Source: Candidatus Omnitrophota bacterium (GTDB lineage: Bacteria > Omnitrophota > Gorgyraeia > Duberdicusellales > 4484-171). Taken from it: a stretch of DNA of 64,000 bases. A program made the position numbers and the translations under genes. The notes under the pieces are model-generated. The model did no database searches, had not been told where the DNA came from, and saw nothing but the letters and a program-made list of their open reading frames with translations. Positions within the stretch are counted from its first letter, which is position 1, and each line of letters opens with the position of its first letter. Of the stretch, positions 1 to 63,390 are shown one piece after another. The DNA is taken from assembly GCA_037146775.1 (NCBI GenBank), contig JBAWWL010000003.1:2334-66333 (forward strand), given 5' to 3'.

Positions 1-70
1 CACGCGGGAACAGATTCCTAAAAAATATTTTTCTTCCTTTTCGTGCGTGCGGCAGAAGCCATAATAATAT

Positions 71-1582
71 ATGAAGACCATTGATATTAAAGAGGAAGGC
101 AGGGTCATCGAGGTAAAACGTTCGATAGCCCGCATCGAAGGATTTCCCCATTGTCTCAACGGCCAGCTTTTAGATTTCGCTTGCGGCCAGCGAGGCATGG
201 TTATGGGGTTTAAGGAAGAAGAAGTTTTTGCACTCATCTTAGGCAGCCGTCAGGACGTTAAACCTGGTGAAAAAGTATATACCAGGGAAGAAACGTTTCG
301 GATTCCTGTCGGATATGGTTTTGTCGGCAGGATCGTGAACAGTTTGGTTGAGCCGCTTGATGGCAAAGGTCCTATTGCCTTAAAGGCTCCATCCACGCCA
401 AAAAAAGATACTGTCGAGGAGGGTACGGCTAAACGCCCCGCTTCTTTTTCCGACCTGTATCCCGTATTTAGAGAAGCGCCGTCGGTATTGCAGCGCGAAC
501 CAATTACCAAGACGCTCGAAACAGGTTTACGAAGCATTGACGCTATGATCCCCATTGGCAAGGGGCAGCGTGAGCTTATCATCGGTGACCGCATGACCGG
601 GAAAACCAGTATAGCCTTGGATACTGTCTTAAATCAGAAAGATAAAAAAGTGCTTTGTATCTATTGTTTTATAGGCAAAGACTACAATACACTTAAGAAG
701 GTGGTCCAGGCGTTATCCAGCGCGCAGGCTTTTACCTATACCGTTGTGGTCGCTGCGTTTGCTTCCTCGTCTCCGGGAGAACAATACTTAGCGCCCTATG
801 CTGCGTGTACGTTGGGCGAGTTTTTTATGGAGCATGGCGAAGATGTTTTTGTGGTTTTTGATGATTTAACCAAACATGCCTGGGCTTACCGTCAGCTTTC
901 TTTGCTTTTAGAACGTTCTCCGGGCCGTGATGCCTACCCCGGAGATATTTTTTATCTCCACTCACAATTAGTGGAGCGTGCCAGCAAATTGAATAGTGAG
1001 CATGGCGGCGGTTCAATGACATTTTTCCCCATCGTCGATACCATACAGGGAGATATTACCGGCTATGTTCCTTCCAATTTGATTTCCATGACCGATGGCC
1101 AGATCTATCTCAACACTACTCTTTTTGCCGAGGGTTTTAAACCGGCGATAGACCTGGGCCTTTCGGTTTCGCGTATAGGCAGTAAGGTGCAGTCAAAGGC
1201 GATGAAAGAGTTGAGCGCTATGCTGCGGCTGGAATATCTTCAGTACAAAGAATTGCTAAAAATGTCGAAACTAAAAGCAGGACTTTCGCCCGAAGTAGAA
1301 AAAAAACTCCGTAGAGGAGAAGCCATTACACAGATTTTGATACAAGAAAAGAATAAGCCATCGCCGCACGAAGAACAGTTGCTTATGTTGTATGCTTTGC
1401 GTAAAGGTTTCCTGGATGGCTTGTCTCATGAAGAGATAGGCAAATTTAAAAAAGAAATTTATGCTTTTGCGCACGAACATGGCGAAGTCTTTATGCGGGA
1501 AATAGCCAGCAAGCGGGAATTGACAGAAACAATCAAAGAAGGGTTAGAGGCTATTCTTAAGAAATATTTCGGCAAAAAATAA
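71..1582 (+). CDS. atpA: F1-type ATPase alpha subunit, paralog 1
   Basis: 503 aa. Alpha-type motifs are present: P-loop GDRMTGKTS, then CIYCFIGK...VVVAAFASSSPGEQYLAPYAA and FDDLTKHAWAYRQLSLLLERSPGRDAYPGDIFYLHS, which closely parallel the E. coli alpha core. About 20 extra residues follow the DGKGPI motif. Confidence 0.85.
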   Translation: MKTIDIKEEGRVIEVKRSIARIEGFPHCLNGQLLDFACGQRGMVMGFKEEEVFALILGSRQDVKPGEKVYTREETFRIPVGYGFVGRIVNSLVEPLDGKGPIALKAPSTPKKDTVEEGTAKRPASFSDLYPVFREAPSVLQREPITKTLETGLRSIDAMIPIGKGQRELIIGDRMTGKTSIALDTVLNQKDKKVLCIYCFIGKDYNTLKKVVQALSSAQAFTYTVVVAAFASSSPGEQYLAPYAACTLGEFFMEHGEDVFVVFDDLTKHAWAYRQLSLLLERSPGRDAYPGDIFYLHSQLVERASKLNSEHGGGSMTFFPIVDTIQGDITGYVPSNLISMTDGQIYLNTTLFAEGFKPAIDLGLSVSRIGSKVQSKAMKELSAMLRLEYLQYKELLKMSKLKAGLSPEVEKKLRRGEAITQILIQEKNKPSPHEEQLLMLYALRKGFLDGLSHEEIGKFKKEIYAFAHEHGEVFMREIASKRELTETIKEGLEAILKKYFGKK

Positions 1583-1641
1583 GTTCTCGCAGAATATCTT
1601 GAAACAAAGTTTTACACAATATCGCAGGTAGTAACCTTGTT

Positions 1642-3225
1642 TTGGGCCAAAGAGCAAACAATCTTATGCAAACTCAATCATATCCTTTCCGGATTAAAGA
1701 ATTGGGCCGCGTTAAAGAAGTAAGAAAATTTATCGTTAAAATCGAAGGATTCCCTTCGTGTATGAACGGCCAGCTGGTTTCTTTTCCCGGAGGGACCAAG
1801 GGGTTGGTGATGGGTTTTAACGAGCGCGAGGCGCTGGCTATCATTTTAGGTTACGAAGGCAGCGTGCGCATCGGCGATATTGTCGAAGCACAAAGCCAGG
1901 CATTTACAGTGCCGGTTAACGATAGTTTACCGGGTAGAATTATCACCGCGCTGGGAAAGCCTTGCGACGAGAAAGGCCCGATCGCGGTAAGTGGATTTTT
2001 ACGTTTGGCAGCGAACGCCGACAGTCTCACCGCGCACACGTCTTATTGCCCTGTGTTCACCGAAGCGCCCTCGGCCATGGAAAGATCGGATGTCCACGAG
2101 CAACTGGAGACAGGCGTAAAGATGGTCGATATGTTTGTTCCGCTCGCCAAGGGCCAGCGCATACTTATTTTTGGTGACAGGATGTCGGGCAAGACCTCTC
2201 TGGCTACGGACGCTATTATTAACCAAAAGGATAAAGATGTGGTGTGTGTGTATTGTTCGATTGGAAAAAGCTATTTTTCTCTTTTACGGGTCGTCCAGTT
2301 ACTGAAGAAGCATCGCGCTTTGGATTACACGGTTGTCGTTGCCGCAGGAGCTGCCTCGTCGTGCGGTGAACAGTATCTGGCGCCATATACAGCCACCGCG
2401 GTAGCCGAATACTTTATGAACAAAGGCAAAGATGTGTTGCTGGTAATGGATGATTTAACCAAACATGCCTGGGCTTACCGCCAGCTTTCTTTACTTTTAG
2501 AAAGGCCGCCGGGCAGAGAAGCTTGCCCCGGAGATATTTATTATATTCACGCACAACTGCTCGAGCGTTCAGGTAAATTAATAGATGAAAAAGGAGGGGG
2601 CAGTATTACGTCGCTTGTACTCGCAGACACATTGCAGGGTGATATAAGTAGCTATATTCCTTCAAACTTTGTCTCCATGCTCGACGGTCAGATATATTTA
2701 AGTACCACCTTGTTCGGCGACGGCTTTAAACCGGCGATTGATTTTGGTTTATCCATTTCGATTATGGGCGGAAAGATCCAGCATCCGGCAATAAAAGAAT
2801 TTACACAGCGCATACGTATAGAATATGCTCAGTACCGGGAATTGCTTAGGCTGATGAAGTTAAAGTCGACGCTTTCCTCCGAGGCGGAGGCAAAGATAAA
2901 ACGCGGAGAAACCATCACCGAGCTTCTTAAACAGCAGCGTTCTAGCCCGGTGTCGCAAGCGGAGCAGATAATTTTGCTGTATGCTTTGGAAAAAGGTATG
3001 CTGGATAAGCTTTCGAGCCAACAGCTCAAAACATTCAAAAATGATTTTTTTAGCTTTGTACAAAAAGAAGAACCGGAGATAGTGCGCTTGTTGGAAGAAC
3101 GGCAGCCGCTGGATAACAAAAGTGCCGCCTTGATCGAAAAAGTTCTGCAGGATTTCTTTGTGCAAATAGCGGTCAGCTTTAAGATCCAACCGCAGCCTGC
3201 GCAAGCCATCCCTGTCGGAGTATAA
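1642..3225 (+). CDS. F1-type ATPase alpha subunit, paralog 2
   Basis: 527 aa. A second alpha-type protein: P-loop GDRMSGKTS, MDDLTKHAWAYRQLSLLLERPPGREACPGDIYYIHAQLLERS. I estimate 45-50% identity to paralog 1 by eye. It starts 60 bp downstream of paralog 1. Confidence 0.8.
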   Translation: MGQRANNLMQTQSYPFRIKELGRVKEVRKFIVKIEGFPSCMNGQLVSFPGGTKGLVMGFNEREALAIILGYEGSVRIGDIVEAQSQAFTVPVNDSLPGRIITALGKPCDEKGPIAVSGFLRLAANADSLTAHTSYCPVFTEAPSAMERSDVHEQLETGVKMVDMFVPLAKGQRILIFGDRMSGKTSLATDAIINQKDKDVVCVYCSIGKSYFSLLRVVQLLKKHRALDYTVVVAAGAASSCGEQYLAPYTATAVAEYFMNKGKDVLLVMDDLTKHAWAYRQLSLLLERPPGREACPGDIYYIHAQLLERSGKLIDEKGGGSITSLVLADTLQGDISSYIPSNFVSMLDGQIYLSTTLFGDGFKPAIDFGLSISIMGGKIQHPAIKEFTQRIRIEYAQYRELLRLMKLKSTLSSEAEAKIKRGETITELLKQQRSSPVSQAEQIILLYALEKGMLDKLSSQQLKTFKNDFFSFVQKEEPEIVRLLEERQPLDNKSAALIEKVLQDFFVQIAVSFKIQPQPAQAIPVGV

Positions 3226-3258
3226 GATGTTCGTAATCGCGTAATGTAAGGAGAAATA

Positions 3259-4116
3259 GTGGCAACGCTATCGTCGCTTAAAAAGGAATATGATTTTAAT
3301 GTGGAGCTGGCATCTGTGATAGACGTTATGAAGGGTATTGCTGCCTCACAATTTCAGTCGTTACAGCGGCGCAGGGAGCGATTTAAGAAATTTCTTGATT
3401 CCTTTTCCAGCTTTTTTCAGCTCATCGATTTTAGCGCAGTCGCACACCCCTTCGGCCGCTTAGCGACAGAACGTGTGGGTATTATCATGGTGACTTCCGA
3501 CGAGGGTTTTATGGGCGGATTGAATACCCACGTTATCAATGCAGCTCTCGCCCATCGGAGGACCGAAGCCGAATTGATTATTGTCGGCGACCGCGGTGCG
3601 GCATATTTAAAAGGTTTAGGTGAACAGTTTACATATTTCCCCGGCGTTACCGACGAGAATAAATACGAGTTAGCCATAAAATTACGAGATTATATTATGC
3701 AACAAAGCAAACGCGCTAAATTTGGCATGGTTCTTTTGTCGTATCCTTTGCCGGTGTCTTTTACCTTTCAGAAGGTGGAAGTGATTAAGCTCCTGCCTTG
3801 TACGGAATTATTCGAAAAAAAAGAAGATTTGACCTCAGGCGGTGAAAAAGTTATTGTCGAGTCGCATCTCGAAGATATTATTGAGCATTTGGTGGCTGAA
3901 TGGATATCTGAAAAATTGTACGAAGTCTTTGAGGATTCAAAACTTTCTGAATTCGCCGCCCGGGCAATCAATCTTGAACAGAGCTATCAAAACGTTTCGC
4001 AGTCACGGAAAATAGCCCGGTACCGTTTTTTTCAGGCAAAACATACCGCCATAGACAGAAGTATGCGTGAAACGTTTGCCTCGCAACTTTTGCGTAAAAA
4101 AGATGCGGTTACATAA
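3259..4116 (+). CDS. atpG: F1-type ATPase gamma subunit-like protein
   Basis: 285 aa. GTG start, with an AAGGAG RBS 6 nt upstream. The N-terminal pattern ([33 protein letters not shown]) fits the gamma N-helix; both the length and the position between alpha and beta fit gamma. Confidence 0.65.
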
Positions 4117-4157
4117 TATGCACAGTACACAGGGCTGCGACAACAAGAGATAATCAT

Positions 4158-5549
4158 ATGGCAGATAATACTATTAAAAAAACAGGCAGGGTGGTTGCGG
4201 TTCAGGGGCCGGTAGTCGACGTTAAATTCGAAAAAGCGGAAGAAATTCCCGGCATATATCAAGTTATTATTACCAAAACATTTGACGGTAAGGAGCTTCT
4301 TTTGGAAGTAACCGAGCATCTCGAGGGAAACATCGCCCGCTGCGTCGCCTTGGCCTCAACGCTTAATTTGCAGCGAAACCAGCCGGCGGTTGCGCAGGGT
4401 AGTCCTATTAGTATTCCGGTGGGCAAAAGTTTATTTTCAAGAATTATCAACGTTGTCGGCGAGCCTATTGATTCGCAGGGCCCTATTGTTACCAGCGAAA
4501 GAATGCCCATACGAAAAGATATGACTTCATTTTATCTTAACCCGGACAGGCACAGCCTGGAAAAGCTCGAAATTTTAGAAACCGGCATAAAAATTATGGA
4601 TTTATTGTTTCCAATGGTCAAGGGAAGCAAGTCGGGAATACTTGGCGGCGCGGCTTTAGGCAAAAGTATTCTCACTTTGGAATTGATACATAATGTTACG
4701 CAAAAGAGCAAGGGCGTCTGTGTATTTACCGGAGCCGGCGAGCGTATCCGAGAAGGCAACGAATTATATAATGAGTTCAAGAAACAAGGTTTACTGGACA
4801 GAGTTATTATGGCATTTGGCCAGATGAATGAACCTCCGGGCGCGCGGTATGAAATTGTTTTAACCGGAGTGACCGTGGCTGAATATCTGCAAAGCCAGAA
4901 TCAGGACGTTCTCTTTTTTGTGGATAATGTTTACCGATTTGTACAGGCAGGAGCTGAGATTTCCACGCTCTTAGGCAGGGTACCCTCCGAGATGGGGTAT
5001 CAGCCAACTCTGGCCTCGGAAGTCGGTGAATTCCAGGAACGGATTCGTTCAAGAGAATCAGGTTCGATCACTGCCGTAGAGGCGATCTATGTTCCGGCTG
5101 ATGACTTAACCGATCCGGCAGTCGTCACTATATTTAGTTACTTGGATGCGGTGTTAGTGCTTTCGCGAGAACGAATACAGCTGGGGTTATATCCGGCCAT
5201 TGACCCGCTCTTGTCAAGCTGTTCCAATCTCGATCCTGAGATTGTAGGGGAAAGGCATTTCATTATAGCTCAGGAAGTAGTCAAAATTTTAACCAAATAT
5301 GAGGAGTTGAAGAAAATAGTGGCGGTTATCGGCGTGGATGAACTTTCCAAAGTCGATCGCATTCTTTATGAGCGGGCCAGAAAGCTGCAGAATTTTCTTA
5401 CCCAGCCGTTTTTTACGGCGGAAGTCTATACCGGTAAGAAAGGAGAATATGTAACTATAAAAGAAACCCTAGACGGCTGCGAGAAAATTATTTCCGGAAG
5501 AGCCGACACTATTAAGGAAGAAGATTTGTATTTGATAGGAAAACTTTAA
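4158..5549 (+). CDS. atpD: F1-type ATPase beta subunit
   Basis: 463 aa. [16 protein letters not shown]...[23 protein letters not shown]...[43 protein letters not shown]...[10 protein letters not shown]...DELSKVD parallels the E. coli beta catalytic core. The P-loop is the variant GGAALGKS. Confidence 0.88.
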
Positions 5550-5612: not shown

Positions 5613-7298
5613 GTGGCAATACGGCTTGGAGAGATACTGGTAGATGAAAAAATTATTACGCAGGAACAGCTTGATGAAGCTTTAAAAGAACACGAGCGTA
5701 CCGGAGACTTCTTGGGGCAAATCTTGATCCGGCGAGGTTTTATCGGCGAGGGCCAGCTGGCAAGAACACTTTCGCAGCAGATGGGTGTGCCGTATCTTAA
5801 CCTGAAAGAAGTGCCGATAGATGAGGCTCTTACGCGCCGCGTCCCCGCCAAGCTTGTGTGGCATTACAAAATTATGCCGATCAAGCTCGACGGCAATGTC
5901 TTAACGGTTGCCATTTCCAACCCTTTTGATATGTGGCCGCTTGATGATATTGAAGTGAATCTGGGTTTCCGGGTTGAACGGGTACTTTCTACTCCCAGCG
6001 ACATAACGCAGGCGATAAAAAAATATTATGGCGTCGGAGCCGAAACGATCGAAAGCATTCTAGAGCAACAACCGACCGTGGTGCACGAGACGAGCCTTAA
6101 AGAAAGAACCGAGGATATCGAAAAAAGAGCCGAAGATGTTTCGGTGATTACGCTGGTAAATCAAATTTTGCATCAGGCGATCAAAGAGGGGGCGACCGAC
6201 ATCCATATCGAGCCGTCCAAAAACGAGTTGTCATTGCGTAATCGCGTTGATGGTATCCTGTACGATACCGCCGTTTCCGAAGATATACGCTATCTATACC
6301 CTTCGATTGTTTCACGCATCAAAATTATGGCTGGTCTTGATATCGTTGAGAAAAGGCTTCCCCAGGACGGCCGCGCGCGCGTAAAATTGGGCAACGAGGA
6401 ATTCGATTTACGCGTATCGGTACTACCGTCTGTGTATGGCGAAAATGTGGTTATCAGGATTTTGCCTACCACCATGCTTTTCAGCCTGGAGAAGCTCGGG
6501 CTTTTGCACGAAGACCTAAAGAAATTAAAAGAGCTTATTAGCAAACCTCACGGGATAATCTTTTTAACCGGCCCTACGGGAAGCGGAAAAACCACAACGT
6601 TATATGCGGCATTGAGCACCTTAAATACTTCCGAAACAAAGATTATTACTATCGAAGACCCGGTGGAATATGAGTTGCGTAGAATTCACCAGATACAGGT
6701 GAGCACAAAAATAGATTTAACTTTTGCAAGGGCCCTGCGCAGTATGTTGCGGCATGACCCCGATATTATGATGGTGGGAGAAGTAAGGGATTTCGAGACT
6801 GCCGAGATTGCAATCCAGGCAGCTTTAACCGGCCACCTCGTATTTTCAACTCTTCATACAAACGACGCTTCCAGCGGAGCAACACGTTTACTTGATATGG
6901 GCGTTGAGCCATATCTGGTAGCTTCCAGCGTCGAGGCTTTTATCGCCCAGCGTTTGGTGCGAGTGATTTGCTCTCACTGTAAGGAGAGTTATCAGCTTGC
7001 GCCGGAACTGCGCGCTTTTATGGAACCGAAATCAAGCGAGATATGTATGGTATACCGAGGCAAGGGGTGCGAGATGTGCCGGCATACCGGTTACAAAGGA
7101 AGGACCGCAATCTATGAGATATTGACCGCAAGTACGCCGATACGCCAGCTCATTATGACAAAAGCATCAAGCGACGAAATAAAGCAAAAAGCAATATCCT
7201 TAGGTATGCGAACCTTGAAAGATGACGGTTGGGAAAAGGTAAAGAAGGGTATTACTACTCTCGAAGAAGTGATGCGAGTAACTAAGATTACCGAATAA
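5613..7298 (+). CDS. pilB: Type IV pilus / type II secretion assembly ATPase (GspE/PilB family)
   Basis: 561 aa. GTG start with an AAGGAG RBS. N-terminal GspE_N-like domain, Walker A GPTGSGKTTTLYAAL, tetracysteine CSHC...CEMC zinc motif. Confidence 0.88.
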   Translation: MAIRLGEILVDEKIITQEQLDEALKEHERTGDFLGQILIRRGFIGEGQLARTLSQQMGVPYLNLKEVPIDEALTRRVPAKLVWHYKIMPIKLDGNVLTVAISNPFDMWPLDDIEVNLGFRVERVLSTPSDITQAIKKYYGVGAETIESILEQQPTVVHETSLKERTEDIEKRAEDVSVITLVNQILHQAIKEGATDIHIEPSKNELSLRNRVDGILYDTAVSEDIRYLYPSIVSRIKIMAGLDIVEKRLPQDGRARVKLGNEEFDLRVSVLPSVYGENVVIRILPTTMLFSLEKLGLLHEDLKKLKELISKPHGIIFLTGPTGSGKTTTLYAALSTLNTSETKIITIEDPVEYELRRIHQIQVSTKIDLTFARALRSMLRHDPDIMMVGEVRDFETAEIAIQAALTGHLVFSTLHTNDASSGATRLLDMGVEPYLVASSVEAFIAQRLVRVICSHCKESYQLAPELRAFMEPKSSEICMVYRGKGCEMCRHTGYKGRTAIYEILTASTPIRQLIMTKASSDEIKQKAISLGMRTLKDDGWEKVKKGITTLEEVMRVTKITE

Positions 7299-7314
7299 AA
7301 ATTAAACCATAACC

Positions 7315-8526
7315 ATGGCACTCTATTATTATCGCGCAAAAAAAGGGCCTAAAGAAATCGTGGAAGGTGAGTTGGCTGCCGAGAACAAAGATGCGGCAGT
7401 CGTAAAATTGTCTTCGCAGGGGCTCATCCCGGTTCATCTCGAAGAAAAGGTTTCAGGGTATGAGCCAAAAATAACGGCGGTAAAATCAGGCAAGGTTACC
7501 TTGAAAGAGGTAAATATCTTTGCGCGCCAGTTAGCCAGTTTGCTTAAGTCAGGAAACACTCTTTTACGGTCATTAGACATACTTTCCCGTCAGGCTCATA
7601 ACGCATACTTCCAGTGGGCAGTCGGTCAGATGGCGAGGCAAGTGAAAGAGGGTAGTACTTTTTCTCAAGCCCTCTCCGGTTTTGGGCGTATTTTTCCAGC
7701 CTTGTATGTCAATATGGTAAGATCGGGAGAGGAGGCGGGTACGTTGGATGAGGTTTTGCGGCGGTTAGCCGAATATGGAGAAAAAACTGAAGAAATGCGT
7801 TCAAAAATCAAAGCCGCCCTTGCCTACCCTTCTCTGCTTATTATATTAGGTATGGGAACCGTATTCGTGCTTTTAACTTTTTTTATGCCTCGTCTGGTAA
7901 ATTTATTTCAGGATTTAGGCCAAACATTGCCGCTTCCTACCAGGATACTCATAGCTCTCAGTTCATTTCTGCAAGTATACTGGCCATGGCTGATTGTTGT
8001 TGTGGCAGGTATTGTCGTGTTTGCGCGAAAACGAGGTTTGCGCGCACAAGAGCGCGTGACCATCGATTGGTTGAAACTAAAGATCCCGGTTATGGCAGAC
8101 CTGATACGTAAAGAAAATATATCCAGTTTTACCAGATCGCTTTCTTTGCTGCTTAAGGGAGGATTGCCTATATTTCGGGCAATCGAGATCATTACGCCAA
8201 CCTTAACGAATACCAAATACCGTCAAATGTTTGAGAAGGCAGGTAATAGGATCGTACAAGGGGTATCTTTGGCTAAAAGTATGGAAGAGCAAGGTGGATT
8301 TGAACCTTTTGAAATAAATATGGTTGCGGTAGGCGAAGAAAGCGGCCGGCTGGATGAGTCGCTTCTTGAGATTGCCAAAAGCTACGAGGCCGACATGGAA
8401 GGGACACTACGCGTCGCGACGTCATTACTTGAACCGCTTATTATTATCGGTGTTGGCTGTATCGTTGGCTTTATCGTGTTTGCGATGCTTTTGCCGATAT
8501 TCCAGATGGACATTACTGCCATGTAA
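7315..8526 (+). CDS. pilC: Type IV pilus / T2SS inner-membrane platform protein (GspF/PilC family)
   Basis: 403 aa. Duplicated GspF-type domains with transmembrane segments. Lies directly after pilB. Confidence 0.82.
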   Translation: MALYYYRAKKGPKEIVEGELAAENKDAAVVKLSSQGLIPVHLEEKVSGYEPKITAVKSGKVTLKEVNIFARQLASLLKSGNTLLRSLDILSRQAHNAYFQWAVGQMARQVKEGSTFSQALSGFGRIFPALYVNMVRSGEEAGTLDEVLRRLAEYGEKTEEMRSKIKAALAYPSLLIILGMGTVFVLLTFFMPRLVNLFQDLGQTLPLPTRILIALSSFLQVYWPWLIVVVAGIVVFARKRGLRAQERVTIDWLKLKIPVMADLIRKENISSFTRSLSLLLKGGLPIFRAIEIITPTLTNTKYRQMFEKAGNRIVQGVSLAKSMEEQGGFEPFEINMVAVGEESGRLDESLLEIAKSYEADMEGTLRVATSLLEPLIIIGVGCIVGFIVFAMLLPIFQMDITAM

Positions 8527-8707
8527 TTTTCGTTTACTAAATTATATGTAGTGTTGATGTGTGCCGTAGCATGTCGTAAGCGATCAATACTTTTGCTGGC
8601 CGCAAGACGAGCCGGAAAAAATAAAAACACTTCCATTTTCGTCCCCGTGTTAAAGTTCGGCCAATATGAAGTGTATCCATTAAAGACGATTAAAGAGGGG
8701 TAAGCCG

Positions 8708-9160
8708 ATGCTGTGGTCCGTAAAAGAGAAAACGAGCTATCGCCTGCGCTGCAATCAGCACATTCGGCACAAACGAACATTTACTCTTGTCGAGGCGCTC
8801 TTAAGTGTTGCAATAGTCGCTGCGGGTCTTATAGGTATCATGCAGGCCTTGATGAAAGAGGTAAGCGCGTTGAGTAATATCGAGGAAAGAATTGAAAGCG
8901 CGCGTATTCTGCAGGAGAAATTCGGAGAGGTTACGAAAGAACTTTTAAAAGCAACGCAGATCGCTCCTGTTTCCCGAGAAAATGAAATAGTGTGCGGCCC
9001 GCGCCGTTACAAAATGCAACTGTATGTGGATCAGAAGAGTCCGATAAAGTATTTGTATGAAATACAACTTGTCTGTAGTTGGCAAAAATTCGCTCGAGAG
9101 CAGAAAAATACACTGGTAACATTTTTGTATAAACCAATCCAGAGCAAGAATGAACAATAG
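8708..9160 (+). CDS. Prepilin-type N-terminal domain protein (minor pseudopilin); the annotated start is probably too far upstream
   Basis: Contains a KRTFTLVEALLSVAIVAAGL class-III signal-like hydrophobic segment. The leader is unusually long (about 33 aa) and has Thr rather than Gly at position -1. Confidence 0.5.
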   Translation: MLWSVKEKTSYRLRCNQHIRHKRTFTLVEALLSVAIVAAGLIGIMQALMKEVSALSNIEERIESARILQEKFGEVTKELLKATQIAPVSRENEIVCGPRRYKMQLYVDQKSPIKYLYEIQLVCSWQKFAREQKNTLVTFLYKPIQSKNEQ

Positions 9161-9716
9161 TCGCGATTGTCGAATAAATGTGGCAAAGAACGCTTGCGGC
9201 TTTACCCTTGTTGAGGTATTGCTTGCGATAGCTATTTTTGGAATTATTTCCGGTGCTATTTTTGCAGTATTTACCCGCAGTATTGCGGTCTGGGAAACCG
9301 CCCGTATTAAGGCAAACCACAAAGAAAAAGCGCTGTTTTTCTTGATGTCTTTTGAAAAGGAACTGAAGAACCACATTGATACAGGTAATGTTCAGTTTAT
9401 TGTCGAGGAAAATAAAATATATTTTACCACGCTCAAAGACACGATCTATAACGTACTGTATGTGTTTGACAAAGCGTCCGGGCAGTTTTACCGTTATAGG
9501 TCGGTTTATCCTATCCCGCCGGCCTCAGTAAAGCCGGTTGTGGTTTTAAAAAATGTTGTCTCTTGCGGGTTTAGCTGCGAATATCCTCTTTTGGCGCCGG
9601 GTCAAGACGCACAAAAAAATTCTAGCCTACCTTGCATGGTAACAGTAAAATTTTCGGTAGATGATGTTAAAACAAAAAATAATTATGCACTATCCCGGGT
9701 TATTTCTATTCCCTAA
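9150..9716 (+). CDS. Prepilin-type minor pseudopilin (GspJ/PilW-like)
   Basis: Canonical G|FTLVEVLLAIAIFGIISGAIF prepilin cleavage/methylation motif near the N-terminus. Confidence 0.7.
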   Translation: MNNSRDCRINVAKNACGFTLVEVLLAIAIFGIISGAIFAVFTRSIAVWETARIKANHKEKALFFLMSFEKELKNHIDTGNVQFIVEENKIYFTTLKDTIYNVLYVFDKASGQFYRYRSVYPIPPASVKPVVVLKNVVSCGFSCEYPLLAPGQDAQKNSSLPCMVTVKFSVDDVKTKNNYALSRVISIP

Positions 9717-10704
9717 GGTTCACCGCCGCAGCAGCATCCTTATTATATCGCTATGGTTGATTTTCCTTCTGGCATTCTTTACTGTGGTCATAGCCGGCAT
9801 TATCAGGCAGAAGCTGATTGTCGCAAACCGTATCGATAAAGGGTTTAAGGCGTATGCGGCAGCTCTTGCCGCTATCGAAGCAGCGAAAGCGGTCGTCGGG
9901 CAGAGTGACGAAGGAAACCGTCTCACCAATCTTTATCGTTGGTATAATGATGAACGTATATTTAAAGATAAACATCTCGGCGAAGCTTTTTATAACGTAG
10001 CCTACACCACAGACACAGGCGCATCAGCCACAAAGACTGTCTATGGGTTGATAGATGAAGAACGCAAAATTAACCTTAATAAAGCGCCGCAAGAAGTGCT
10101 TTTTAGATTATTCAGCCAAGAGGGTATTGTGGAGGCAAAGCAAATTGCCGCTTGCGTAATAGACTGGCGGGATAAAGATTCGCAAATTACCGATGCAGGC
10201 GCAGAGAATACGTATTATAATAGTCTCAAGGATCCTTATAGTGCGCGCAACGCAGATCTGAAGTCTATCTATGAACTGTTGTTGGTAAACGGTATGACTA
10301 AGAAAGACTTCGACGTGATAAAAGAATATGTGACGGTATATGGCGGCGGCGCGGTTAATGTGAATACTGCCTCGAAGGAAGTGTTGGCTGCCTTGGGGTT
10401 TGGGCCTTCGCTTATAGCCAAGATAATAGAATACAGGAACGGTCCTGACGGCGAGCTATTTACGGCGGATGATCGGATGTTTGAAAATGCTTCGAGCATT
10501 CCTGCCGTGCTACAGGCTTTTACGAAATTGTCTCCGGATGAAGAAAGCCAATTGCAGGATGCGTTGAAAAGTAATACACTGGGGATAGAAGCAGCATATT
10601 TCGAAGTAAAAGCTTTTGGTTCAACCACGGGTAAACAAGAAACCGCGTACGTTGATTGTATTATATCGAAAACCGGGAAGGTTTTATTTTGGCACGAGCA
10701 ATAA
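9661..10704 (+). CDS. GspK-like minor pseudopilin with helix-hairpin-helix repeats
   Basis: 347 aa. N-terminal transmembrane helix; two HhH-like segments (NLNKAPQEVLFRLF..., VNVNTASKEVLAALGFGPSLIAKIIEYR) typical of GspK. The true start is likely the internal Met near 9685. Confidence 0.6.
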   Translation: MMLKQKIIMHYPGLFLFPKVHRRSSILIISLWLIFLLAFFTVVIAGIIRQKLIVANRIDKGFKAYAAALAAIEAAKAVVGQSDEGNRLTNLYRWYNDERIFKDKHLGEAFYNVAYTTDTGASATKTVYGLIDEERKINLNKAPQEVLFRLFSQEGIVEAKQIAACVIDWRDKDSQITDAGAENTYYNSLKDPYSARNADLKSIYELLLVNGMTKKDFDVIKEYVTVYGGGAVNVNTASKEVLAALGFGPSLIAKIIEYRNGPDGELFTADDRMFENASSIPAVLQAFTKLSPDEESQLQDALKSNTLGIEAAYFEVKAFGSTTGKQETAYVDCIISKTGKVLFWHEQ

Positions 10705-10722
10705 TATAGAGCGGCTAGCGAT

Positions 10723-12177
10723 ATGAAAAAAATAACCTCATTTTTATCCAAACCAAAAAGAGTTGCGCTTGAGCTTGGCACGAGCTGGGTTAAGATTGCG
10801 CAAGCACAGCTTTTAGATCAACAGTATAAGATTGTGGGCTTAAGCGTAAAACGAATGCTTGATATTAAGACCACCCTGGCCCCTGCCATGAAGCAATGGT
10901 TTAGGGAAATGGATATTACCGGTAACGAAGTTACTCTAATTATTCCCCGACATTTTGTTACCATAAAAAATCTGGAGTTGCCCTCGACGGATACGCGCGA
11001 GATTAAGGAAATCATCGATTTACAGATTTCAAAACAAACACCTTATTCCCGCGACGAAATAGTATTTGGTTTTAAGGTTTTACAGGGGAACACCGAAGGT
11101 TATTCGAACGTCTTGCTTGCGATTGTCAAAAAAAATATCATCGAAGAACGCCTCAAGCTTTTAAGAGAATTGCAGCTGGAAGCGGGCTGTATTCGTATCA
11201 GCTCAGAAATGGCATACCAATATTTTTTGCTGTTTAGCCGTGCCAAGCATCTCAAGGAATCAACGGCGTTGATTATCGATATTGACGAAGAGTCTAGCGA
11301 AGTATTCGTACTTAGCGCGGGCGAGCCGGTTTTTTCCCGTAATATTTTTATTGGCAGAGAATTTATCTTAAAGAATCCAGACGACTGGGAACGTAAATTT
11401 TCCGAAGAGATTAAGAGGCTGTTCGAGCTTTATCATCACGAAGGCCACCGCGCTGCGGTTGAACGCGTATTAATTACCGGCGCCACGGATGGGCTGGCGG
11501 ATGTGTTGACGTTTGTTCGCCTTTCGCTTAATTTACCTGTTGAAAAAATAGACATACTAGACATACCTATATGTATGCCCGAAGAAGCCTCTTCTATCAA
11601 AGTAATGTCTCGTTCGGTTTCTCTTTCTTCCGTTATCGGCGCCTTATGCTCACAAGAAAAAGCTCATATCAATCTTCTTCCGAGGGAAATCGAAATAGAA
11701 CGGCAGGTAAAATATAAAGCAAAATATCTTACTATTACAGGTATTTTTAGTGTCGCGGTCCTTATTTTACTTTCGGCTTTGTTGCTTGAGAAATTCTACA
11801 CAAAGAAACATTATTATGAACTGTTACACGCTAAATTTATCAAGTCAGAAACCGAAGCCGGCGATATTGAGTCCATTAAAGTAAAGGCAAATACCATCCG
11901 TAAATATCTCGATAAGAAGAATTCCGTAGTCAACATTTTGCAGGAATTGTTTAAAATTACGCCGGACCAGATTTATTTTCGCGACATTCATTATGTCAAG
12001 AATAAAGAAGTGATTTTGACCGGTTCTTCGGAGGCAATGTCCGACGTATTCAAATTCGTTACCATACTGGAGGCTCTTGAGTGTTTTGAGAATATTAAAA
12101 CAAATTATGCGACCAAGAAGCAAAAAAATGGTAAAGACGTGGTTGATTTCGAACTGATTTGTCCTTTGAAGGAATAA
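10723..12177 (+). CDS. PilM-PilN fusion protein (type IV pilus alignment subcomplex)
   Basis: 484 aa. Actin-like PilM region (about residues 1-310), followed by the conserved INLLP motif, a single transmembrane helix (ITGIFSVAVLILLSALLL) and a periplasmic PilN-like tail. Confidence 0.65.
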   Translation: MKKITSFLSKPKRVALELGTSWVKIAQAQLLDQQYKIVGLSVKRMLDIKTTLAPAMKQWFREMDITGNEVTLIIPRHFVTIKNLELPSTDTREIKEIIDLQISKQTPYSRDEIVFGFKVLQGNTEGYSNVLLAIVKKNIIEERLKLLRELQLEAGCIRISSEMAYQYFLLFSRAKHLKESTALIIDIDEESSEVFVLSAGEPVFSRNIFIGREFILKNPDDWERKFSEEIKRLFELYHHEGHRAAVERVLITGATDGLADVLTFVRLSLNLPVEKIDILDIPICMPEEASSIKVMSRSVSLSSVIGALCSQEKAHINLLPREIEIERQVKYKAKYLTITGIFSVAVLILLSALLLEKFYTKKHYYELLHAKFIKSETEAGDIESIKVKANTIRKYLDKKNSVVNILQELFKITPDQIYFRDIHYVKNKEVILTGSSEAMSDVFKFVTILEALECFENIKTNYATKKQKNGKDVVDFELICPLKE

Positions 12178-12714
12178 ATGATGGTTAAGTTAAAAATAAC
12201 AAAAAAAGAGCGCCTTATAGCCTACGTCGCGGTTTTTATGGTTGTTGCCGCTATCGGAGACAGACTTTTTTACCAGCCAATCAGAGACAAATTCAGCGGC
12301 ATGAGCAAAAAAATTTTTGTCGAAGAAAAAAAAGTTGGTGTAAACCTACGTAACTTGGCACAAAAAGACGCTATTCTTGAAGAATATAAAAAACTTTCTA
12401 AATACGTGTCTCCGATAGGAACTGACGAGGAAGAAATCTCCCGCTTCTTAAGTATTATCGAAGAAACAGCGCGTAACTCAAATATCTATATGAGCGGCAT
12501 GAAGCCGCAGCCAACCGCAAAAGTAGATTTTTATAAGCGTTACGTTGTGGAGTTGGAGGTGGAAGCGCCGACCGAGCGATTGATAGACTTTCTGTATAGA
12601 CTGGAGTCTTCAAATCAGCTTATTAACATAGAAGAGATACAGCTAAGCACCAAAAACGAAAGTACAAAAACGCTCAAAGCCCGTATGCTGGTTGCCAGAA
12701 TTCTTATCCCCTAA
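12178..12714 (+). CDS. PilO/GspM-like bitopic membrane protein
   Basis: 178 aa. N-terminal transmembrane helix (LIAYVAVFMVVAAIG). Sits immediately after pilMN. Assignment is by context and topology. Confidence 0.4.
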   Translation: MMVKLKITKKERLIAYVAVFMVVAAIGDRLFYQPIRDKFSGMSKKIFVEEKKVGVNLRNLAQKDAILEEYKKLSKYVSPIGTDEEEISRFLSIIEETARNSNIYMSGMKPQPTAKVDFYKRYVVELEVEAPTERLIDFLYRLESSNQLINIEEIQLSTKNESTKTLKARMLVARILIP

Positions 12715-12780
12715 GCCCTTGAGATCCAGGGGCGCATGATTGGTGGTCTCGTAATGAGTTATTATAATTAAGGAGGTATC

Positions 12781-13746
12781 ATGCAAGTTAAAGAAATCCC
12801 GGCAGTGGATCTGGATACTGGGAAATTCATTGTACAAAAAACAAAAGAGATTGCTTCCCTGGTCGGCAAAGGACTCGCTATCAATGCGCTTTCCGGCGGT
12901 GTTGATTCCTCTGCCGTGACAATGCTGGGGCATAAGGCTTTAGGCGAACGCCTCAAGACCTATTTTATCAACAACGGCATTATGCGTGAAGGAGAGCCGG
13001 AAAAAATTGTCGCTTTTTTTAAAGAAGTAGGAGTAACGGTAGAGGTGATTGATGCGCAAAAGAAATTTTTTAGCGCGCTAAAAGGCATTACCGATCCGGA
13101 AGAAAAGCGCGAAGCAATCACTCAAACATTTTATAAAGATGTATTTGGTAGCTTAGTGAGAAAGAGTAAGGCAAAATATCTTCTGCAGGGGACCATCCTT
13201 ACCGATATAGACGAGACGGTTGCGGGCATCAAACGGCAGCATAACGTTTTTGAGCAGTTAGGTATAGATCCGCAAAAAGTATTCGGGTATAAAATTATTG
13301 AGCCTCTTGTTTGTTTGCGCAAAGACGGAGTAAGAAAAGTTGCCAAAGCTCTCGGTCTCGCGTATGCTATCTACAACCGTATGCCCTTTCCCGGTCCGGC
13401 GCTCGCCGCCAGGGTTATCGGCGAGGTAACGCCGGCAAAAATAGCGATCGTGCGCCGTGCTACCGCTATTACCGAAGAAGAGTTAGCTTCTAGTGGGGCG
13501 TTCCAATACATGGCAATTTTACATCACGACAGAGTTACCGGAATGAAAGAGGGAAAGAGAAATTTCGGTTTACAGATTGAAATTCGCTGCTGGGACAGTG
13601 TTGATGCGCGTTCGGCCCGGCCCACCCGCCTCTCACATGATACACTAGAGCGGCTCGCCGCGCGTATAAGCGGGGAAATCAAGGAGGTAGTGAGTGTTAC
13701 TTATAATATCGCCACAAAACCGCCTTCGACCATGGAGGCTGTGTAA
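12781..13746 (+). CDS. guaA: GMP synthase ATP-pyrophosphatase/dimerisation subunit (GuaA subunit B-type, standalone)
   Basis: 321 aa. PP-loop SGGVDSS; GuaA-specific downstream motifs DPEEKREAITQTF, LLQGTILTD, MPFPGPALAARVIGEVTPAKI, TKPPSTMEA. There is no glutamine-amidotransferase domain in this ORF or in the neighbouring genes. Confidence 0.75.
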   Translation: MQVKEIPAVDLDTGKFIVQKTKEIASLVGKGLAINALSGGVDSSAVTMLGHKALGERLKTYFINNGIMREGEPEKIVAFFKEVGVTVEVIDAQKKFFSALKGITDPEEKREAITQTFYKDVFGSLVRKSKAKYLLQGTILTDIDETVAGIKRQHNVFEQLGIDPQKVFGYKIIEPLVCLRKDGVRKVAKALGLAYAIYNRMPFPGPALAARVIGEVTPAKIAIVRRATAITEEELASSGAFQYMAILHHDRVTGMKEGKRNFGLQIEIRCWDSVDARSARPTRLSHDTLERLAARISGEIKEVVSVTYNIATKPPSTMEAV

Positions 13747-26402: not shown

Positions 26403-26409
26403 ATATGAT

Positions 26410-26544
26410 AAACTCTAAATCCGAAATCCTAAACTCTAAACAAACCTCAAATCATAAACTAAAAATCCCAAACATTTGTTTTGAGTTTGGAGTTTTGTAT
26501 TTCGAGTTTGTTTAGGATTTAGATTTTAGTGTTTAGAGTTTCAT
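26410..26544. repeat. Imperfect palindrome of about 135 bp built from CTAAA/TTTAG-type units
   Basis: Left arm aaactctaaatccgaaatcctaaactctaaacaaacc... Right arm ...ggtttgtttaggatttagattttagtgtttagagttt. The reverse complement of the right arm matches the left arm at roughly 75%. Confidence 0.6.
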
Positions 26545-39996: not shown

Positions 39997-40803
39997 ATGA
40001 AACTGAAAGAATGGATTACGCAAAATAAAAATGTCTTTATCGAGGGCGACTTACGATTTCTTCTAAAACACGTCCTTTCCAACCGTATCGCGGTTTATGA
40101 CGGACAGGAGATTACCGAAAACCAATTATGTTTTCTTGAAAACATAAAAAATCAATATGCGCAGGGCCTGCCACTGGGATATCTTTTAGGTAAAGAAGAA
40201 TTTTTTGGTTTGGAATTAAACGTTGGCCCCGGGGCGCTTCTCCCGCGCAAGGAAACAGAGTTAATCGTCGAACGGGCTATTGCCTGTATCGCACAGCATG
40301 GTTTACGTCGTGTATTGGATGTCGGTTGTGGCTCCGGTAATATTTCCCTTGCAATAAAAAAAAGATTTAATCAGGATGTAAAAGTTTTTTCTGCGGATAT
40401 CAGCCCGGAGGCGCTCGGGTTAGCCAAGGCTAATTTTACGAACCATAAACTACCCAGCCATTTTATCCAGACGGATATTTTTGCAGGATTTTTGCCTCGC
40501 ACGTTTGATTTGATTATTTCCAATCCCCCCTACGTAGCCAACGATGAAATAGAAGGGAGTTTGTGCCATGAGCCGCGAATTGCTTTAGAGGCTTCCGATA
40601 AGGGTTTTTCTTTTATCGAAAAGATAGTCACTACAGGCGCTGAATATTTGAAAGGGCGTGGTTATCTTATCTTGGAAATAGGGTATAATCATAAGGAACG
40701 GTTAGAAAGGTTGCTTGCAAAGCTATATAGCTATGAAATAATAGAGTGGATAAAAGATTATGACGGGAATTGGAGAGGAATAGTTATAAAATTAACGCAT
40801 TAA
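39997..40803 (+). CDS. prmC: Release factor glutamine N5-methyltransferase
   Basis: 268 aa; SAM motif VLDVGCGSGNISL; NPPY motif (ISNPPYV). Confidence 0.85.
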   Translation: MKLKEWITQNKNVFIEGDLRFLLKHVLSNRIAVYDGQEITENQLCFLENIKNQYAQGLPLGYLLGKEEFFGLELNVGPGALLPRKETELIVERAIACIAQHGLRRVLDVGCGSGNISLAIKKRFNQDVKVFSADISPEALGLAKANFTNHKLPSHFIQTDIFAGFLPRTFDLIISNPPYVANDEIEGSLCHEPRIALEASDKGFSFIEKIVTTGAEYLKGRGYLILEIGYNHKERLERLLAKLYSYEIIEWIKDYDGNWRGIVIKLTH

Positions 40804-40880
40804 CGGATTAAATGATTATATGTTAGATTGTCAGATCATGCAATGCGTTAATTCTTTAATTCGTTAATTTTTTAATCGAC

Positions 40881-50541: not shown

Positions 50542-50616
50542 CGGGGCGTGGCTCAGTCCGGCTAGAGCACTTGGTTCGGGACCAAGGAGTCGGAGGTTCA
50601 AATCCTCTCGCCCCGA
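50542..50616 (+). tRNA. tRNA-Pro (anticodon CGG)
   Basis: I folded it by hand. 7-bp acceptor stem CGGGGCG/CGCCCCG with a C1:G72 pair and A73 discriminator (typical of bacterial tRNA-Pro). D-stem GCTC/GAGC. Anticodon stem CTTGG/CCAAG with loop TTCGGGA. T-stem GGAGG/CCTCT with loop TTCAAAT. No encoded CCA. Confidence 0.85.
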
Positions 50617-50878
50617 TTCTTTCTTCTTAATTATCTAATTCTTTAATCCTTTGATTTCTCCACATATCAACCTAATAACCTATCAACATATCACCCCTAC
50701 TACCCCATGCCCCTTTTTCTTAATAATCCCTTATCCTTTAATCCGTTAATTATTTAATTTTTTAATTCGTTAATCCTTTAATCTCTTCGCATGTCAACCT
50801 GTTATCCCATCCCCTAATAATCCATATTTTTCAGCATTTTTTAATTGCAAATAGTAAATTATTCGATAAAATAACTTA
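50617..50878. repeat. Gene-free 260-bp tract downstream of tRNA-Pro made of dispersed short repeats (TTAATCCTTTAAT / TTAATTCGTTAAT / ATCAACATATCA families)
   Basis: Copies of the same words occur at 40845-40878 (gttaattctttaattcgttaattttttaatcg) and 42377-42460. The reverse complement of 50657-50690 matches 42379-42411 at roughly 90%. Confidence 0.6.
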
Positions 50879-61935: not shown

Positions 61936-62892
61936 ATGAAAAACTTAAAAAATAAACGAATTTTAGTTACTGGCGGCGCTGGATTTATTGGCTCACACAT
62001 TGTAGACAGGCTCGTTAAGGAAGGTGCCAAAGTAACGGTGCTGGATAACTTGTTGTCAGGTAAATTAAAAAATATAGAGCAGCATTTAAAGAAAATAAAA
62101 TTTATCCAGAAAGATTTACGTGACGATTTGGCCCTGGATGAGGCTTTGGACGGTGTAGAATTTATTTCACATCAGGCCGCCTTGCGTAGCGTCCCCAAGT
62201 CGATATCCAGGCCCCTCGAATACCACGATGTTAATGTTACCGCAACGCTAAAACTTTTTCTTAAGGCAAAAGAAAAAGGCGTAAAACGCATAGGTTTTGC
62301 CTCCAGCAGCTCGGTTTATGGAGAGCGTTTTGATTTCCCGGAAAAAGAAACCGATTATCCCAAGCCTATATCGCCCTATGCTGCCACCAAGCTTCTTTGC
62401 GAGCATTATGCCTACCTTTTTAGCCAACAATACAAACTGGGGGTGGTGGGTTTACGTTATTTTAATGTATATGGCCCCAAGCAGTCTCTTGATGACGAAT
62501 ATGCGGTAGTTATCCCTAAATTTATCGCTTGTTTATTGAAAGGAGAAAAACCGCCTATTTATGGCGATGGTGAACAAGAAAGAGATTTTACCTATGTGGA
62601 AAACGTAGTAGAGGCGAATATCTCAGCGCTTCTGCAACCTAATATTGAAGGTGAAATATTTAATATAGGTAACGGCTCTCCTAATACAGTGAACGGGTTA
62701 TTGGAATCTTTAAACCAGATTATGGGTAAAAATATCGCCGCCAGTTATCAACCGCCACGGCAAGGAGATGTACGTAAAACCCACGCTGATATAAGTAAAG
62801 CAAAAAAACTTCTTAAATGGCAACCAAAAATTGATTTTACCGAAGGTTTGAGGAGAGCAGTGGATTGGTTTAGGGAGACAGAGGTCAGATGA
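61936..62892 (+). CDS. NAD-dependent nucleotide-sugar epimerase/dehydratase (GalE/WbpP-like)
   Basis: 318 aa; [10 protein letters not shown]; YAATK catalytic motif. Confidence 0.8.
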   Translation: MKNLKNKRILVTGGAGFIGSHIVDRLVKEGAKVTVLDNLLSGKLKNIEQHLKKIKFIQKDLRDDLALDEALDGVEFISHQAALRSVPKSISRPLEYHDVNVTATLKLFLKAKEKGVKRIGFASSSSVYGERFDFPEKETDYPKPISPYAATKLLCEHYAYLFSQQYKLGVVGLRYFNVYGPKQSLDDEYAVVIPKFIACLLKGEKPPIYGDGEQERDFTYVENVVEANISALLQPNIEGEIFNIGNGSPNTVNGLLESLNQIMGKNIAASYQPPRQGDVRKTHADISKAKKLLKWQPKIDFTEGLRRAVDWFRETEVR

Positions 62893-62902
62893 CAGAGGAC
62901 AG
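62868..62902. repeat. Copy B of the CAGAGGTCAGA/TCTGACCTCTG repeat (overlaps the epimerase stop codon)
   Basis: acagaggtcagatgacagaggacagaagtcagagg. Its reverse complement matches copy C (63295-63333) over an 18-bp core of the type TCTGACTTCTGnCCTCTG. Confidence 0.6.
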
Positions 62903-62923
62903 AAGTCAGAGGGTAGAGGAGAG

Positions 62924-63319
62924 ATGGGTATAAAAACGATAAAAGATTTGAAAGTATACGAGATTGCTTATAAATTAGCTATGGAGATATTTGAAATAAC
63001 AAAGAAGTTTCCCAAAGAAGAGACGTATTCGTTGACTGATCAGATAAGACGTTCTTCTCGGTCAGTAGCCATAAATATCCGTGAAGGGTATGCTAAACGA
63101 AAATATGAGCAAGTATTTATCAGGCATCTAAATGATTCATTAGGTTCAGGCGAAGAAACAAGGGGATGGTTAAGCTTTGCGAAAGATTGCAAATATATTA
63201 CAGAAGTTTTATATAATAAATTAGACGTTAGGTATGATGAGCTCTGTGCCATGCTTTATTCTCTCATGAATAGCTGGGAGAGCCCTTCTACCGTTGAGGT
63301 TCTGACTTCTGACCTCTGA
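62924..63319 (+). CDS. Four-helix-bundle protein (23S rRNA intervening-sequence protein family)
   Basis: 131 aa; KDLKVYEIAYKLAMEIFEITKKFPKEETYSLTDQIRRSSRSVAINIREGY matches the family's signature layout. Confidence 0.75.
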   Translation: MGIKTIKDLKVYEIAYKLAMEIFEITKKFPKEETYSLTDQIRRSSRSVAINIREGYAKRKYEQVFIRHLNDSLGSGEETRGWLSFAKDCKYITEVLYNKLDVRYDELCAMLYSLMNSWESPSTVEVLTSDL

Positions 63320-63333
63320 TTTCTGACATCTGA
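63295..63333. repeat. Copy C of the CTTCTGACCTCTGA...TCTGACATCTGA repeat (contains the stop codon of the four-helix-bundle ORF)
   Basis: gaggttctgacttctgacctctgatttctgacatctga; the same as copy A at 28731-28751 plus a 7-bp duplication (tttctga). Confidence 0.6.
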
Positions 63334-63390
63334 TATTCAAATGCACTCACGACTACATACTCACTACTACATACTATATACTATATACTC

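Follow-up and report, generated by a model that had tools for sequence, protein, structure and literature searches.

We analysed a 64,000-nucleotide (nt) stretch of DNA from a Candidatus Omnitrophota bacterium (assembly GCA_037146775.1, contig JBAWWL010000003.1, positions 2,334 to 66,333), hereafter called the window. Four co-oriented genes of an F-type ATPase, alpha1, alpha2, gamma and beta, occupy its positions 71-5549, and the first two encode alpha subunits in tandem (Table 1). An earlier sequence-only reading of this DNA had described two full-length alphas with intact P-loops and roughly 45-50% identity by eye. Performing BLASTP, we find that the proteins are 50% identical (249/495 positions, with 6 gap positions); the P-loops GDRMTGKTS and GDRMSGKTS are intact, and the observation is confirmed. 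The three Pfam alpha/beta domains or their equivalents are present in both proteins. Alpha1 passed the cutoffs of two curated profiles, TIGR00962 (552.2 versus 484.45) and NF009884 (555.7 versus 554), and its top PDB matches are F1 alpha chains (E = 1e-138). Alpha2 passed TIGR00962 (500.4 versus 484.45) and scored below the NF009884 cutoff (537 versus 554). The longest open reading frame (ORF) of alpha2 begins at a TTG and spans 1642..3225 (527 amino acids, aa); we use the ATG at 1666, which is the gene call on a second assembly and fits the N-termini of the orthologues.

Aligning both proteins to solved alpha chains, we checked the arginine finger, whose state in each copy the sequence-only reading had left open. 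Alpha1 keeps it (R368, in SVSRIG); alpha2 does not, and carries isoleucine at this position (I366, in SISIMG). The Walker B motif DDLTKHA is found in both window alphas. Among 26 finger-less alphas, G175, K176 and T177 of the P-loop and the two aspartates of Walker B are invariant. Alpha2 keeps the alpha fold, the P-loop and Walker B, but has lost the one residue that all previously known alphas give to beta catalysis. The residue class at this position is also narrow: members of the finger-less clade hold I in 13, T in 2 and V in 1 case (n = 16), and the arginine is kept in 81/81 other Omnitrophota alphas. Scanning for positions conserved to at least 80% in the finger-less clade and to at least 80% in the other 81 alphas yet different between the two, we obtained the finger and no other. 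Relaxed criteria added just I to V and M to L changes. Around the finger, positions -5, -4 and -2 vary more in alpha2. The conserved finger loss in a paired second alpha, and not the insertion that the sequence-only reading had stressed, is the notable feature of this locus.

Our survey sample comprised 95 related loci from genome and metagenome collections, a lineage-wide scope that the sequence-only reading had missed. Three operon layouts occur. The common one has a single alpha (epsilon, c, b-delta, alpha, gamma, beta); the second, as in the window, reads epsilon, c, b-delta, alpha1, alpha2, gamma, beta; the third places the pair in front (alpha1, alpha2, epsilon, c, b-delta, gamma, beta). 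In all 14 tandem pairs with both fingers visible (11 complete and 3 partial), the upstream copy carries SVSRIG and the downstream copy I, T or V, and arginine occupies the finger in 70/70 alphas of single-alpha operons. The two genes are always adjacent, alpha1 before alpha2, and in relatives they overlap or lie 2-18 nt apart.

A profile search of 1.84 billion representatives gave scores that do not separate alpha2 from other alphas. Six of its best 150 matches lack arginine at the finger position: P0122, P0218 and P0259 resemble alpha2, the divergent P0234 and P0239 align poorly at this site, and P0229 has a gap in its place. Of the best 120 clusters at 90% identity, 37 are finger-less. The top matches of the search also include delta-alpha and b-delta-alpha fusions from unrelated taxa (P0123, 689 aa; P0125, 753 aa).

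The cores of the two genes are only about 67% identical in DNA and share no long near-identical tract, so the pair is neither an assembly duplication nor the result of recent conversion. Both genes are also found on an independently assembled contig, from the Candidatus Omnitrophota metagenome-assembled genome GCA_964613555.1 (locus L001), and with so low a DNA identity we conclude that the duplication is real. In neighbour-joining trees, the finger-less alphas of both double-alpha layouts form one clade (93/100 bootstraps) within an Omnitrophota-specific alpha clade (100/100 bootstraps), and in 0/100 bootstraps are they the exclusive sister of their own alpha1 partners. The duplication is therefore old.

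For selection analyses, the synonymous divergence (dS) between the window and locus L002 was saturated, and closer orthologue pairs were taken. Across four such pairs, the ratio of nonsynonymous to synonymous divergence (dN/dS) is 0.11-0.16 for alpha2 and 0.06-0.17 for alpha1, and both are under purifying selection. These values bear on two possibilities that the sequence-only reading had held in reserve, namely that alpha2 is a redundant, decaying duplicate or that the pair is an assembly artefact. In a single genome, a missing essential catalytic residue would look like decay, and alpha2 evolves slightly faster than alpha1 in most compared pairs (65.5% versus 73.8% identity between the window and L002). 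However, frameshifts and stop codons are absent, dN/dS is low, and the finger-less alphas form an old monophyletic clade of at least 37 clusters at 90% identity with the same residue class at the finger throughout. An artefact is likewise contradicted by the recovery of the pair in independent assemblies and by its DNA divergence. We regard this explanation as extremely improbable. The idea of subfunctionalisation put forward by the sequence-only reading is supported, given an old monophyletic alpha2 lineage under purifying selection with one radical change, at the finger, beside an alpha1 that retains the arginine. The best explanation is that alpha2 is probably a conserved, specialised F1 alpha paralogue.

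Table 1. Features of the ATPase operon and the adjoining pilus genes in the window.
Feature	Coordinates	Strand	Basis and remarks
b-delta fusion, 3' end	1..54	+	gene of 247 aa, remainder upstream of the window; equals L001 1823-2566, same DNA, offset 2545 nt
alpha1, F1 alpha subunit, Arg finger kept	71..1582	+	503 aa ORF; PF02874, PF00006, PF00306
alpha1 insert, ~22 aa (KAPSTPKKDTVEEGTAKRPASF)	383..448	+	crown-to-nucleotide-domain linker after DGKGPI; unaligned between residues 105 and 128 versus solved alphas
alpha1 P-loop GDRMTGKTS, residues 172-180	584..610	+	motif
alpha1 Arg finger R368 (SVSRIG)	1172..1174	+	aligned to SVSRVG of solved alphas
alpha1-alpha2 spacer, 83 nt	1583..1665	+	no promoter-like or terminator-like site seen
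alpha2, F1 alpha paralogue, finger-less	1666..3225	+	519 aa, ATG start; PF00006, PF00306
alpha2 insert, 16 aa (GFLRLAANADSLTAHT)	1993..2040	+	after DEKGPI; gap versus solved alphas
alpha2 P-loop GDRMSGKTS, residues 170-178	2173..2199	+	motif
alpha2 Ile366 at the Arg-finger position (SISIMG)	2761..2763	+	aligned to R of SVSRVG of solved alphas
gamma, 285 aa	3259..4116	+	PF00231 110 bits (versus 39.9); TIGR01146 81.9 versus 194.45, below equivalog cutoffs
beta, 463 aa	4158..5549	+	TIGR01039 573 versus 462.85
beta P-loop GGAALGKS	4644-4667	+	motif survey
beta catalytic Glu	4740-4742	+	motif survey
type IV pilus genes	5613..12714	+	Pfam domains on matching gene calls
PilB-like ATPase with MshEN domain	5613-7298	+	Pfam
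PilC	7315-8526	+	Pfam
pseudopilins	8708-10704	+	Pfam
PilM/N	10723-12177	+	Pfam
PilO	12178-12714	+	Pfam

The beta subunit is intact. The window beta keeps its P-loop lysine and the motifs GER(I)REG, DNVYRF, LLGR and VPADDLTDP, and the beta catalytic motifs are intact in single-alpha and pair operons alike. The stator, in turn, is remodelled. The second assembly (L001) adds 2.5 kb upstream of the window sequence, and its order is epsilon, a response-regulator receiver, c, b-delta, then alpha1, alpha2, gamma and beta. Searching with Firmicutes b and delta profiles, we find that the b-delta fusion holds a complete b at residues 7-155, followed by the delta C-terminal domain alone (148-234), and that the delta N-domain is absent. 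The N-terminal bundle of delta normally clamps the N-termini of alpha. The N-terminal delta/OSCP-binding helix, which the sequence-only reading had also proposed to check, is missing in both window alphas: solved alphas align to them only from chain residue 22-31 onwards, and the first crown strand, with its anchor Gly, comes after just 9 residues in alpha1 and 13 in alpha2. The references have 28-34, with 28 in three of the four (Clostridium, Blautia and Youngiibacter). The losses of the alpha N-terminal helix and of the delta N-domain go together. The epsilon gene (L001 607-834) encodes 75 aa, the N-terminal domain only, with the C-terminal helices absent. A 70-aa c subunit is highly conserved and keeps the glutamate in FAE[SA]IA. 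Epsilon is cut to its N-terminal beta-sandwich, 74-100 aa long, in most loci, and this reduced form is a phylum-wide trait of the operon, as is the b-delta fusion.

We infer co-assembly of the two alphas, their stoichiometry and a kinetic consequence along the following lines. Alpha2 would be made from the same transcript as alpha1 and would fill one or two of the three alpha positions, giving an (alpha1/alpha2)3-beta3-gamma head. There it could still hold a nucleotide of its own and would touch beta at both interfaces, without offering a transition-state arginine. F1 with alanine in place of the arginine finger still rotates unidirectionally, but it does so 1,000-10,000 times more slowly and its torque falls to about 50% (review PMC5380711). 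By the same measure, a beta site facing alpha2 would bind nucleotide and turn over 1,000 to 10,000 times more slowly, and the three catalytic sites would become non-equivalent. In effect, a dwell position, or a brake on hydrolysis, would be built into the head. Each turn would then process fewer than three ATP, or yield fewer than three were the membrane side to drive the complex. A distinct alpha may also offer the single b-delta stalk a unique docking partner, because the delta N-domain and the alpha N-terminal helices, the usual stator attachment, are gone. Adjacency in a fixed order, frequent overlap and the lack of any other systematic change in alpha2 are most economically read as a sign that alpha1 and alpha2 share a mixed head, one or two of whose catalytic sites would be crippled, and we lean modestly towards this model.

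A different arrangement would be alternative homo-oligomeric heads formed according to conditions, an active alpha1-3/beta-3 and a near-dead alpha2-3/beta-3 that is parked or regulatory, with no mixed rings. Ring contacts would not block homo-trimers of either alpha, alpha2 retains every conserved alpha feature but the finger, and the L114 and L127 lineages manage without alpha2. Against this, the genes are adjacent, in fixed order and often overlapping, and the spacer in the window has neither promoter nor terminator; differential expression of the alphas would need post-transcriptional control. Moreover, a head with three finger-less interfaces would be near-inert, which is hard to square with strong purifying selection. 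We thus consider separate heads unlikely.

Alpha2 might instead act outside the hexamer, as a stator or adaptor, an assembly factor or a nucleotide sensor on the b-delta stalk or the pilus machinery, with a ring of alpha1-3/beta-3. The canonical stator attachment is gone, so the head needs another holder, and the retained P-loop could still bind nucleotide. However, the conservation of alpha2 is that of a ring subunit, with no clade-specific change on surfaces that would be freed from beta, and it has no added domain; the hypervariable insert is its only extra segment. Such a role outside the ring seems to us distinctly unlikely.

Several points weigh against the mixed head. Loci L114 and L127 group with pair-type alpha1s yet have no alpha2, so alpha2 can be lost; such losses or transfers appear to have come after the duplication. 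All of our trees are neighbour-joining trees. Lysine or arginine stands at finger+4 in all alphas of the Omnitrophota pilus-linked clade, alpha2 included, where most canonical alphas have N or T, and this residue might partly compensate for the lost finger. The AlphaFold2 (AF2) monomer model of alpha2 has a mean predicted local distance difference test score (pLDDT) of 67.5 and is poor around the interface loops; it is uninformative on the finger region, and we used it for insert disorder alone. Alpha1 and alpha2 are known here from their genes alone, and, as each alpha touches just beta in the ring, no sequence feature fixes the stoichiometry. Finally, a Firmicutes atpB profile gave no match for subunit a at E <= 1 in the 95 Omnitrophota-set loci or the 64-kb window; the same profile detects canonical a subunits in outgroup loci (E = 1e-29). 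Clustering of polytopic proteins shows that the sole recurrent protein with at least four transmembrane (TM) helices near the operons is PilC.

Some further candidates were rejected. No compensating substitution specific to alpha2 was found, the lysine or arginine at finger+4 being common to the whole clade. Alpha1 has not regained a catalytic carboxylate: both paralogues have K or R at the position that is Gln in alpha and Glu in beta. Nor does subunit a lie just upstream of epsilon, where the gene product is a surface protein, variable or giant in size, that has a single TM helix at its C-terminus. In most loci this protein is ~260-2900 aa long and ends in a conserved TM segment (TTWxII..F.GLL.G.FFFTW) and a charged tail; its synteny is conserved (examples: L003 29-7063, L004 16-8229, L008 27-8330, L009 45-8720, L082 2197-3693). 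The pilus-linked Omnitrophota alphas, both window copies included, carry K or R in place of the Gln of AIGQK. Compared with canonical alphas, this group also shows LLLERPPGRE for LLLRRPPGRE and HSQL(L/M/V)ER for HSRLLER.

Other genes are found within the operons. One or two stand-alone response-regulator receiver genes lie between epsilon and c (L001 880-1242; L098), and at L083 (1509-5500) a diversity-generating retroelement cassette, with bAvd, reverse transcriptase and an FGE-sulfatase-fold target, occupies the same place. A gene of the FGE-sulfatase fold adjoins epsilon at L082 (3944-5434) and in the window's genome (L001 2-526). L084 has a 23S_rRNA_IVP-family gene (10481-10855) between gamma and beta, and in this locus Y1 transposase and UPF0102/NERD-family genes (12369-13465) follow beta, replacing the pilus genes.

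We also checked the extra residues that the sequence-only reading had placed after a DGKGPI motif in both alphas and had emphasised. Both copies do carry an insert, and the estimate of about 20 aa for alpha1 was close (22 found); the alpha2 insert proved to be shorter (16 aa), not longer, and the motif itself is DGKGPI in alpha1 only, alpha2 having DEKGPI. The loop is exposed on the outside of the protein, in the stretch that links the crown to the nucleotide domain. As both window paralogues carry the insert in the same loop, it could be a functional module, for example a stalk docking loop, that defines them both. However, its length runs from 0 to +39 aa across the clade in both paralogues. 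It is zero in 66/70 single alphas and in several pairs, being absent from alpha1 and alpha2 of L085, L091, L124, L133 and L138. Two alpha1s that are 95.7% identical, those of L083 and L087, differ by a clean indel (+32 versus 0 aa). In relatives the inserts are palindromic or inverted arrays of heptamers: the L083 alpha1 insert is an ~80 nt element with perfect terminal inverted repeats (fold z = -5.5), and those of L002, L084, L087 and L127 consist of 7-nt tandem repeats in inverted arrays. The AF2 model shows disorder at the alpha2 insert (pLDDT <50, residues 110-124). A functional module is thus very unlikely, and the insertion does not hold as a mark of the paralogues. The insert is unrelated to the finger loss and to alpha2 specialisation; on our best reading, the surface loop would be permissive and would accept mobile or expandable repeat DNA as long as the frame is kept.

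Closely related sequences give further examples. L002 alpha2 and its metagenomic near-twin P0005 differ by a nested 17-aa palindromic insert. Across the insert, the two paralogues of L002 have a 71-nt tract of 93% identity in common, unlike the window pair. L002 alpha1 (1699-3315) has a second repeat-like insert in another surface loop, ~31 aa before GGS ('ARGKQSQDGIASS...RNDE'). The alpha1 insert of the window is exactly as long as the heptamer-repeat insert of its L002 orthologue. The window inserts themselves are not recognisable repeats: neither holds a hairpin or palindrome beyond shuffles (z = 0.13 for alpha1 and 1.11 for alpha2), and neither has a second copy in the 64 kb. An 11-aa in-frame insert follows INQ in P0003. 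Intergenic inverted arrays of 7-8-nt tandem repeats occur in the window at 26409-26541, 40791-40876, 50616-50783, 62877-62924 and 63300-63397, for example (TAAAYCC)n facing (GTTTRGA)n and (GACAGAG)n facing (TTCTGAC)n; they are built like the in-frame inserts in the alpha genes of relatives. The Rickettsia palindromic elements and miniature inverted-repeat transposable elements (review PMC10969869) are alike in being short palindromic DNA in frame within housekeeping genes, compatible with the fold and varying in presence among close relatives. Unlike the Rickettsia elements, a conserved family of 100-150 bp, many Omnitrophota elements are inverted 7-nt tandem arrays, and the window inserts are now without a palindrome. 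Mobile repeat DNA tolerated in frame within a core bioenergetic gene is of separate, smaller interest.

The PilB-like gene begins 64 nt past beta in the window, and in 42/45 related loci, the window included, such a gene follows beta by no more than 4 kb. Seymour et al. 2023 (Nat Microbiol, PMC10066038) described a non-respiratory "symbiotic" F-type ATPase of Omnitrophota beside type-4a pilus clusters. The window operon is this pilus-linked ATPase, a cluster already described that the sequence-only reading had missed: its ATPase genes lie <10 kb from a type-4a pilus cluster, its alphas belong to the Omnitrophota-specific clade (100/100), and phylum and synteny are shared. Searching the main text and supplementary files examined of Seymour et al. 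2023, we met neither a second alpha nor the loss of the finger. The fusion of b with delta, the shortening of epsilon and of the alpha N-termini, and the absence of subunit a did not come up either. The other literature searched held nothing relevant on ATP synthases with two alphas, with paralogues of alpha or with a lost finger. Thus, the pilus-linked ATPase itself has been described, and the second, finger-less alpha that is always paired with a normal one is unreported in the literature searched. The interpretation given by the sequence-only reading is, as a whole, partly supported.

Nearly all ORFs of at least 150 aa in the window (1-64000) lie on the + strand, and the GC skew stays positive over its whole length, in keeping with a long co-directional segment of a single replichore.

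Among known ATPases, the window alphas resemble canonical AtpA (TIGR00962, NF009884) in domain order, P-loop, Walker B and ~40-50% identity to solved alphas. Unlike a canonical operon, this one has two alpha types, the second without the arginine finger. Both also lack ~15-20 N-terminal delta-binding residues, have K or R for the Gln of AIGQK and carry the variable insert. The Mycoplasma type 2/3 F1-like ATPases (MMOB1660/1670 of the gliding motor; MSC_0619/0618 of MIB-MIP) are similar in having F1-derived alpha and beta beside surface machinery and a supposed non-respiratory role. Seymour et al. 2023 (PMC10066038) group the Omnitrophota alpha with these ATPases. Curated profiles do not support this grouping: both proteins reach the cutoffs of the ordinary equivalogs (atpA for alpha1, atpD for beta) and score far below those of the Mycoplasma type 2/3 families (alpha1 408 versus 600 and 317.5 versus 520; beta 428 versus 850 and 406 versus 570). 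Unlike the Mycoplasma systems, the Omnitrophota operon retains c, b-delta and epsilon homologues. The N-ATPase cutoffs (TIGR03324/TIGR03305) are missed as well (alpha1 497 and alpha2 481 versus 750.5; beta 512 versus 752), and the N-ATPase gene order is atpDCQRBEFAG, whereas the window's genome has epsilon-(response regulator)-c-b-delta-alpha1-alpha2-gamma-beta.

The mycobacterial F-ATP synthase likewise fuses b and delta in its stalk, and a structural add-on keeps its ATP hydrolysis suppressed. M. smegmatis alpha chains are among the PDB matches of alpha1. The mycobacterial fusion has a full delta and a second b', the suppression is by a C-terminal extension of alpha, and the three alphas are identical; in Omnitrophota the delta N-domain is deleted and the proposed brake would be a second alpha. 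In the c-paralogue ring of Acetobacterium woodii, a lost working residue alters the number of active sites per turn. Fritz and Müller (2007, cited in PMC9171764) reportedly described that this F1Fo rotor is built from F-type and V-type c paralogues, one without an ion site. There the paralogue ring concerns the membrane rotor and its ion sites; the Omnitrophota proposal would place it in the catalytic head and its ATP sites. For a catalytic-head paralogue with a lost working residue, we found no natural precedent in the literature searched.

To our knowledge, all characterised F1 heads have three identical alphas and three equivalent catalytic sites, and we know of hybrids with one crippled site as laboratory tools only. 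The binding-change mechanism is framed around this symmetry. It is possible, though we hold it as a tentative proposal, that an Omnitrophota clade builds a rotary ATPase head with two alphas in a fixed arrangement and fewer than three competent beta sites. If this is true, it would be the first natural rotary ATPase with fewer working catalytic sites per turn, and a natural finger-less alpha co-encoded with a normal one would mean that evolution broke the symmetry of the head on purpose. An asymmetric head would act as a one-way brake or an indexing position; were it coupled to an ion-driven rotor, it would raise the ion-per-ATP ratio without enlarging the c-ring. The system would address whether an asymmetric head serves as a brake, for indexing or for an altered coupling ratio, and how a head is anchored without the attachment of delta to the alpha N-terminus. 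It would also address the purpose of a pilus-linked, apparently a-less F-type complex in these ultra-small, host-dependent bacteria.

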